DNA of 64,000 nt from Escherichia phage BP32. The position numbers and the translations under genes were made by a program. The notes under the pieces are model-generated. The model made no database searches. It was given only the letters and a program-made list of their open reading frames with translations, and was not told the origin of the DNA. The stretch is taken from the sequence record OR906198.1. One strand, 5' to 3'. Positions 20,549 to 21,353 of the stretch are shown here, piece by piece (within the stretch, counting starts at the first letter, position 1; each line of letters opens with the position of its first letter).

Positions 20549-21003
20549 TGGAATTTAAAGACTTTTCAACGGGTCTTTATGTAGCAGCTAAGTTTTCAGA
20601 ATTAACACTTGATGCGCTGGAAGAACTTCAGCGCTCTTTACGTGTTCCTAATCCAGTTCCTAGAGAAAAAATTCATTCGACCATATGTTATTCAAGAGTA
20701 AATGTTCCGTATGTTCCATCAAGTGGAAGTTTTGAAGTAGCTTCTTCTGGACATTTAGAAGTATGGAAAACACAAGATGGATCGACTCTTGTACTTGTGC
20801 TAGATTCTGAATATCTGCGCTGTCGACACATGTATGCGCGGGCACTAGGTGCTACACATGATTTTGATGATTACACACCGCATATAACATTGTCTTATAA
20901 TGTTGGACCCTTATCATTTAGCGGTGATGTACAAATTCCAGTCGTATTAGATCGTGAATACAAAGAGCCTCTTAAACTCGATTGGGCAGATGATTTAAAA
21001 TAA
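20548..21003 (+). CDS. 57B: gp57B, 2H phosphoesterase (Acb1-type anti-CBASS nuclease)
   Basis: 151 aa; two H-x-T motifs (IHSTI and PHITL) typical of 2H phosphoesterases; position after 57A. Confidence 0.85.
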
Positions 21004-21023
21004 TTTCACAAAGTTGTTTACAT
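20988..21023 (+). repeat. direct repeat copy A (gene 3'-end plus early-promoter -35 region)
   Basis: agaNgatttaaaataatttcacaaagttgtttacat, 35/36 identical to 21318-21353. Confidence 0.7.
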
Positions 21024-21045
21024 GTTGATGAGGTAGTGATACTAT
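21017..21045 (+). promoter_or_regulatory. T4-type early promoter
   Basis: -35 TTTACA (21017-22), 17-bp spacer, -10 TACTAT (21040-45). Confidence 0.65.
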
Positions 21046-21075
21046 TATCTCATCAAAATTAATTAGGAAAATAAA

Positions 21076-21333
21076 ATGAAAACTTTCAAAGAGTTTGCTA
21101 CAAAAACTACTATCACTGAATCTTCTCACGGTATGGAAGTAAAGCTTGGAATGGCTTTAGCTGAAGCTGAGCGTCTTTTCTCTCGTATTAAAGAACTTGC
21201 TGCTGCAGTCGATCCTTCATCTTTTAAAGGAGACCAAACTAAAGTTAAAGCGCTTTTAGCATTATGCTCTGATGCAGGCGAAATCGCTAAGAACGGTTCT
21301 AAGATGAAGAAACGATTAGAAGATTTAAAATAA
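21076..21333 (+). CDS. internal-protein-like ORF at ipI locus
   Basis: 85 aa; N-terminus MKTFKEFATKTTITE resembles the capsid-targeting leader of T4 internal proteins with an I-x-E prohead-protease site; located after 57B. Confidence 0.6.
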   Translation: MKTFKEFATKTTITESSHGMEVKLGMALAEAERLFSRIKELAAAVDPSSFKGDQTKVKALLALCSDAGEIAKNGSKMKKRLEDLK

Positions 21334-21353
21334 TTTCACAAAGTTGTTTACAT
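21318..21353 (+). repeat. direct repeat copy B
   Basis: second copy of the 36-bp element, spanning the stop of the ip-like gene and the next early promoter. Confidence 0.7.

Follow-up and report, generated by a model that had tools for sequence, protein, structure and literature searches.

What are the direct repeats that bracket the small gene between 57B and trna.4 in Escherichia phage BP32, and do they allow that gene to be lost or exchanged? The question arises from a 64,000-nucleotide stretch of the BP32 genome (the window), a Tequatrovirus (T4-like) sequence read along the direction of early transcription, whose nearest GenBank relatives are 96–97% identical over 20300–22400. A preliminary description of this DNA had proposed an ipI-type gene cassette with its own early promoter, set between 36-bp repeats. 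With a probability of about 0.85, we read the region as the 57B-proximal internal protein (IP) locus of Tequatrovirus, here holding a single Ip5 cassette, in which modules are exchanged by recombination at the boundary elements. The genes concerned are the following.

19593–20318: gene 1, dNMP kinase
20318–20548: 57A
20548–21003, + strand: 57B, Acb1 anti-CBASS phosphodiesterase (Pfam PF23474 Acb1, E = 2.6e-60), annotated 57B in T4, RB14 and RB32
21076–21333, + strand: Ip5 (IpV), internal head protein of 85 aa (PHROG 3499, "internal head protein", E = 1.2e-49)
21404–21589, + strand: trna.4, membrane protein of 61 aa (PHROG 1692), annotated tRNA.4 in T4, RB14 and RB32
21590–22000: trna.3
22003–22290: trna.2
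22377–23009: HNH endonuclease ORF (phrog_14736, E = 6e-124)
from 23016: tRNA cluster

The interval between 57B and trna.4, whose place at the right end of the cassette array is conserved, is the classic polymorphic internal-protein locus, and Ip5 is placed where T4 carries ipI. Because 57B is an Acb1 anti-CBASS phosphodiesterase, the ip cassette directly adjoins another anti-defence gene; the Pfam assignment of 57B is clear, yet RefSeq and PHROG name it "RNA ligase". Further downstream, the HNH homing-endonuclease ORF takes the place held in relatives by tRNA-Gln, which is intact there in T4, RB14, PST and Ec_YwIITB1. Only the first 9 nt of this tRNA (TGGGAATTA) persist in the window, at 22389–22397, and ARAGORN found no tRNA-Gln in the whole window. 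The start of the HNH ORF (22391–22427) is also repeated directly, over 37 nt and at 76% identity, at 51839–51875. The frame opened by an ATG near 51.85 kb is soon broken by stop codons, and this site may be the remnant of a related endonuclease gene.

The cassette gene proved to be Ip5 (IpV) rather than an "ipI-type" gene. Its 85-aa product is 100% identical in amino acid sequence to Ip5 of RB14, RB32, Shfl2, PST (IpV) and T6, and it shares only a leader of ~7 aa with T4 IPI, the mature sequences being unrelated. The N-terminus, MKTFKEF, is a capsid-targeting leader that fits MKT(Y/F)(Q/K)EF and is common to Ip5, Ip6, Ip7, Ip9, RB14 ipI and IpX. Residues 13–15 (ITE) fit, as a sequence motif, the (L/I)xE cleavage site of the prohead protease (gp21). 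Leader, cleavage motif, position in the IP locus and membership of a named family thus all mark Ip5 as an IP gene. Searches against Pfam and NCBIfam returned no family for Ip5, and a search for solved homologues returned none at E<0.7. Nucleotide divergence among Ip5 genes reaches 3.9%; the Lutter gene differs at 10 nt with no amino acid change, and because these changes leave the protein sequence intact, Ip5 appears to be under purifying selection. Ip5 resembles T4 IPI*, Ip2 and Ip3 in its leader, its (L/I)xE motif, its small size, its locus and its accessory status. Ip1, Ip2 and Ip3 each inhibit a distinct GmrSD type IV restriction enzyme. Ip5 most likely enters the head, undergoes cleavage after ITE and accompanies the DNA into the host, where it would serve as an anti-defence factor.

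The window contains a second IP locus, made up of e (29107–29601), denV (29661–30077) and a 157-aa ORF with the leader MKTYQEF (30087–30560), at which no repeat-flanked cassettes were found. In 226 other records a paralogue of Ip5 with 54% identity, absent from the window, is found between e and denV. In phage Nami (extracted sequence 1438–1719) the ATG of this paralogue overlaps the e stop codon, and the gene is without a promoter of its own.

The boundaries of the Ip5 cassette consist of two copies of a composite element.

20988–21056, + strand: repeat copy 1, with the 57B tail and stop in an A/T-rich tract, promoter and A-type hairpin
21016–21021 and 21040–21045: putative promoter of copy 1, −35 GTTTAC, 17-nt spacer with TG, −10 TACTAT
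21025–21056, + strand: A-type hairpin, TTGATGAGGTAGTG/ATAC/TATTATCTCATCAA, enclosing the −10 (RNA fold −15.5 kcal/mol, z=−4.4)
21057–21075, + strand: ip-type leader with Shine-Dalgarno (AATTAATTAGGAAAATAAA), from the junction table
21318–21386, + strand: repeat copy 2, with the Ip5 tail and stop, upstream tract, promoter and B-type hairpin
21346–21351 and 21370–21375: putative promoter of copy 2, −35 GTTTAC, 17-nt spacer with TG, −10 TACTAT
21352–21383, + strand: B-type hairpin, ATAGGGT..TAGT......ACTA..ACCCTAT, enclosing the −10 (RNA fold −14.2 kcal/mol, z=−3.8)

The 36-bp repeats described earlier are present: 20988–21023 (AGATGATTTAAAATAATTTCACAAAGTTGTTTACAT) and 21318–21353 (AGAAGATTT...ACAT) agree at 35 of 36 bases, with a start-to-start distance of 330 bp. 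As had been claimed, they run from the last codons of 57B into the −35 region, GTTTAC standing in both copies, and the translations confirm that both upstream proteins end in DLK* (57B ...DWADDLK, the 85-aa ORF ...KRLEDLK). The last codons of 57B, GAT GAT TTA AAA TAA, form the start of copy 1, and the last four codons and stop of Ip5 (EDLK*) fall within copy 2. An exact 32-mer, GATTTAAAATAATTTCACAAAGTTGTTTACAT, occurs twice in the 64 kb and nowhere else even at 3 mismatches, and 100 dinucleotide-preserving shuffles yielded 0 matches. The repeat is longer than first noted. It extends over 69 nt at 83% identity (57/69; 20988–21056 against 21318–21386), and a second block of 25 nt at 84% (21057–21081 against 21385–21409) spans the Shine-Dalgarno, the ATG and an AAA codon. 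Differing hairpin arms split the contiguous identity of the two copies into blocks of 32 and 12 nt. When the window was compared with itself, as the preliminary description had suggested, the 20988/21318 pair was the best direct repeat, and the other members of the repeat family were other early promoters, at 61–64% identity.

The order of parts is the same in both copies. An A/T-rich tract, TTTAAAATAATTTCACAAAGTT, holds the final two codons and stop of the upstream gene and leads into the promoter; ATCAA lies at the expected start site, 3' of the −10, and is followed by a leader with Shine-Dalgarno and ATG. The ip-type leader AATTAATTAGGAAAATAAA is also found 5' of Ip5, ipI and Ip7 in relatives. 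The sequence TTTACA-N17-TACTAT with TG fits the PST/T4 early-promoter consensus TTTACW-N17-TAYWAT (Comeau 2014), and homologous 30-mers carry a "promoter" annotation in phage Lutter. Judged by sequence, then, both repeat copies are T4-type early promoters, with predicted activity.

We next consider what occupies this site in other phages. All 57B-to-trna.4 junctions were taken from 16 phages plus the window, and every one of the 43 (43/43) holds a homologous element. Across the 16 relatives the site contains 0, 1, 2 or 3 cassettes, as follows.

Nothing: slur02; Jiaodavirus KpV477
Ip5: window, Shfl2, Ec_YwIITB1, Lutter
ipI: T4
Ip6: PhiZZ23
Ip5 + ipI: RB14
Ip5 + Ip6: T6, PST, ADUt
ipI + Ip6: KMB42
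Ip9 + Ip7: N2
Ip5 + Ip9 + Ip7: RB32
Ip5 + ipI + IpX: T4_ev240
Two other cassettes: RB69

The presence and absence of cassettes thus varies at the repeat elements, as the proposed comparison of this junction in related phages was expected to reveal. The flanking genes 57B and trna.4 are 96–99.5% identical to those of the window whatever the cassette content. In PST, which carries Ip5+Ip6, 57B and trna.4 are 99.3 and 99.5% identical to the window, against 97.6 and 97.3% in Shfl2, which carries Ip5 only. Cassette content is therefore uncoupled from flank similarity, the closest flanks belonging to phages of differing content. A synthetic "deletion product" query served for wider sampling: among 34 rows sampled evenly down the match ranking, the insert between 57B and trna.4 measured 0 bp in 1, ~295–368 bp in 16 and ~624–727 bp in 17. 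In the GenBank phage collection this type of 57B occurs in ~502 records, Ip5 in 251 and ipI in 164. This collection was used because the junction pattern matched 3 IMG/VR contigs, too few for a census; one of them carries the element twice at the 330-bp spacing of the window. The Ip5-only arrangement is already in GenBank in Shfl2, pSs-1, PP01 and Lutter. As to an ancestral empty site or one produced by deletion, the outgroups point in different directions, KpV477 being empty and RB69 having two cassettes.

Several junctions have the structure expected of exchange through the repeats. In slur02, 57B is followed directly by trna.4, and the junction equals the left part of window copy 1 joined to the right part of window copy 2 at 113 of 116 bases; this empty site is the product predicted for recombination between the two window repeats. 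T4_ev240 and RB14 have chimeric Ip5>ipI junctions. Their left half is the Ip5 tail with a B-type 5' arm, as in window copy 2, their right half is an A-type 3' arm with the ip-type leader, as in the 57B>ipI junction of T4, and the switch point is the shared TGATACTATTA block. Such junctions are what a single unequal crossover would yield if an Ip5-only genome were joined to an ipI-only one. A second mosaic, with a C-type 5' arm and an A-type 3' arm, occurs at Ip9>Ip7 and at Ip6>trna.4 of PST, the latter carrying the trna.4-type leader. The leader of Ip9 itself is of the trna.4 type, CTACTGAGGAGAATAAAATG, in RB32 (extracted 1334–1405) and of another type, AATAAATGGGTGATTGGAGAATAAAATG, in N2 (604–683), a difference which implies that crossovers have taken place both inside the promoter and at the Shine-Dalgarno/ATG. 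T4 recombines even at microhomologies of 6–10 bp (Srikant 2022), and in RB49 deletion mediated by promoter-early-stem-loops (PeSLs), with excision of PeSL-flanked ORFs as mini-circles, has been shown experimentally (Arbiol 2010). The earlier view of a repeat-flanked cassette with its own early promoter is thus supported by the promoter-like sequence and by the junctions in relatives, and the 0–3 cassettes in 16 relatives, the empty site of slur02 and the chimeric junctions agree with its prediction of ready loss or exchange.

The mechanism that we propose is as follows. Each gene between 57B and trna.4 would be a self-contained expression module, composed of the A/T-rich tract, GTTTAC, the 17-nt spacer, TG-n-TACTAT, the hairpin at the −10, the Shine-Dalgarno leader and an ORF whose first ~7 codons would encode the capsid-targeting sequence. 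Because each boundary has 36–100 bp of near-equal sequence, unequal crossover between boundaries is possible. The T4 homologous recombination machinery, a pathway that we infer, would cross over within one genome or between co-infecting phages, and whole ip genes would be deleted, added or exchanged while promoters and reading frames stay intact.

A different explanation, to which we give little credence, is that the two repeats represent nothing more than a strong early-promoter design used twice (UP-like tract, −35, extended −10) kept alike by selection for transcription, that the shared DLK* arose from ORFs ending by chance in the A/T tract, and that the variability has another cause. The conserved blocks are indeed parts of a predicted promoter, which selection for expression would hold alike, and the LK* codons double as the A/T-rich upstream tract of the promoter, so that promoter function alone could maintain that part of the repeat. 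Ip9, Ip6 and Ip7 too end in ...AAAAT(A/G)A just 5' of GTTTAC. However, the local copies are alike at 35/36 and 57/69 positions, against 61–64% for other early promoters, and it is precisely at the repeat elements that the empty site and the chimeric junctions fall. The (E/D)DLK* end of 57B is also found in Mosigvirus RB69 and Jiaodavirus KpV477, and because it is conserved in both genera the E/D-D-L-K tail is ancestral to 57B. The corresponding stretch of Ip5, GAAGATTTAAAATAA, therefore looks like a copied 57B 3' end, which fits a view of the repeat as the trace left by a duplication. A similarity of the 57B and Ip5 tails further upstream (CGATT...AGA) needs a frame-changing 1-nt gap, and we treated it as chance.

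The same explanation bears on a site elsewhere in the window, which had been put forward as a third copy of the repeat at 52552–52578.

52552–52601, + strand: "third copy", ~80 nt 3' of nrdH (52165–52473), a putative early promoter in the upstream-tract subclass of the repeats

The match exists, with a 1-nt indel (TAAAATAATTTTCACAAAGTTGTTTAC; TTTT instead of TTT). It is confined to the promoter upstream tract and −35, and the site has neither an ORF end nor a hairpin. The tract TAAAATAATTT(T)CACAAAGTTGTTTAC is equal to that of the repeats in an intergenic, non-ip setting, and promoters at 25241 and 40477 are of the same subclass and share much of it, as selection on promoter design would predict. 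In contrast, the identity between the two cassette boundaries takes in GA(T/A)GAT codons beyond the tract seen at 52552. The promoter is kept downstream of nrdH in 504 records. By these features the 52552 site is an unrelated early promoter and no ip-cassette boundary, and the claim of a third copy stands as to the match but not as to its kinship with the ip repeats. Just 3' of nrdH, at 52476–52500, there is a GC-rich hairpin (GGGCCCTCTGGGCC) with a T-rich run behind it, and after a further ~70 nt comes the early promoter at 52572. The terminator-then-promoter layout of a canonical PeSL is matched by this 52476–52572 region, unlike the IP-locus elements.

We also examined the hairpins at the cassette boundaries. 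In each copy the hairpin spans the interval from the −35 to the start site with the −10 at its apex, and the outer stems are TTGATGAG/CTCATCAA in copy 1 and ATAGGGT/ACCCTAT in copy 2. The pairing registers of the A and B types differ: the 3' arms begin at an equal column and the 5' arms are offset by ~5 nt. A strict covariation test was dropped because the differing registers preclude one consensus structure; instead, we used fold z-scores for each sequence against dinucleotide shuffles. Among distinct junction cores from relatives, 27 of 29 fold at z<=−2.3, with at least 4 differing stem sequences, that of RB69 included. A hairpin enclosing the −10, in at least 4 sequence-distinct versions, is thus found in Tequatrovirus, Jiaodavirus and Mosigvirus. 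Because two Ip9>Ip7 chimeras do not fold, the hairpin is not indispensable. Comparable folds are seen in 2 of 13 other early promoters of the window (25577 and 37722). At these two (25577–25621 and 37722–37766) palindromes of 13 and 15 bp enclose the −10 (z=−6.1 and −5.6), and the remaining 11 early promoters in the window are without such a palindrome.

Neither boundary hairpin is followed by a U-tract, and an intrinsic terminator scan of 20300–23100 returned 0 sites, so the "promoter-terminator" property of canonical PeSLs is unsupported for the Ip5-flanking elements. A transcript from the element's own promoter would be without the 5' arm, and the hairpin would consequently form in DNA or in read-through RNA only. 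One could imagine, though we hold it to be improbable, that the hairpin is not incidental but a structure-specific signal which steers breaks or template switches to the cassette boundaries, possibly because endonuclease VII cuts extruded hairpins or cruciforms or because replication pauses there. Alternatively, it might be an insulator of each cassette, acting only on read-through RNA. Were the hairpin such a signal, the ip locus would be an integrase-free, integron-like array. It would share with integrons tandem single-gene cassettes of variable number and order and related hairpin-forming boundaries. In contrast to integrons, the ip locus is without integrase and without attC/attI chemistry, each cassette has its own promoter, and homologous recombination is the presumed route.

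Less probable still is that ip exchange is driven mainly by the nearby homing endonuclease, with double-strand breaks in the tRNA region repaired from a co-infecting genome and conversion tracts that run across the ip locus and stop at conserved patches, promoter elements among them: an HNH ORF that has replaced tRNA-Gln does lie ~1 kb downstream, and T4 SegB-driven preferential inheritance of the tRNA region appears in the reference list of Comeau 2014, but the HNH gene is absent in many phages of differing cassette content (T4, RB14, PST, Shfl2), break repair alone leaves the junction switches inside the promoter element unexplained, and homing would at most supply the initiating break, with the repeats still needed as homology, and so complement recombination at the boundary elements.

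Exchange of ip modules by recombination at these elements is in line with earlier accounts. Repoila, Tetart, Bouet and Krisch (EMBO J 1994) dealt with the same locus (the 57B-tRNA region) and the same ip family with its conserved N-terminal leader. As relayed by Arbiol 2010 and Comeau 2014, that paper found otherwise unrelated ORFs flanked by conserved, mostly untranslated blocks, proposed that these mediate recombinational shuffling, and noted PeSL-like sequences at both IP loci. Compared with the T-even loci as so described, the window shows no substantive difference and is one more Ip5-only genome. In the GenBank record of RB32, likewise, the annotation of Ip9 and of Ip7 reads "flanked by 43 bp direct repeat". 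Arbiol 2010 regarded the IP-locus elements, with T4 early promoters and weaker AT-rich stem-loops, as analogues and not homologues of PeSLs and suggested that they may drive plasticity within IP loci, a view repeated by Comeau 2014, who extended PeSLs to PST/T4.

The fit to PeSL shuffling that had been proposed for the Ip5 cassette is accordingly partial. Like the PeSLs of RB49/phi1, PST/T4 and nt-1/KVP40, the Ip5-flanking repeats are part of an intergenic element of ~100 bp that combines A/T tract, early promoter and stem-loop with a Shine-Dalgarno/ATG; for both kinds the flanked ORFs are small, accessory and variable among close relatives, and mutual recombination of the elements has been proposed. 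The promoter, the stem-loop and the variability thus agree, whereas the position of the stem-loop and the terminator do not. In PeSLs the stem-loop is upstream of the promoter (PST figure legend, Comeau 2014). At the Ip5 boundaries it encloses the −10, the 5' arm falling within the spacer and the 3' arm at the start site, and neither a poly-G/poly-C stem nor a U-tract nor a terminator call was obtained.

Earlier work (Repoila 1994, Arbiol 2010, Comeau 2014) therefore already covers this arrangement, its repeats and the role proposed for them, and BP32 adds no new biology. For the T4-like phages, the ip loci are where interchangeable injected anti-defence proteins are stored, and the repeat-flanked modular design explains why a quick change of host range is possible.
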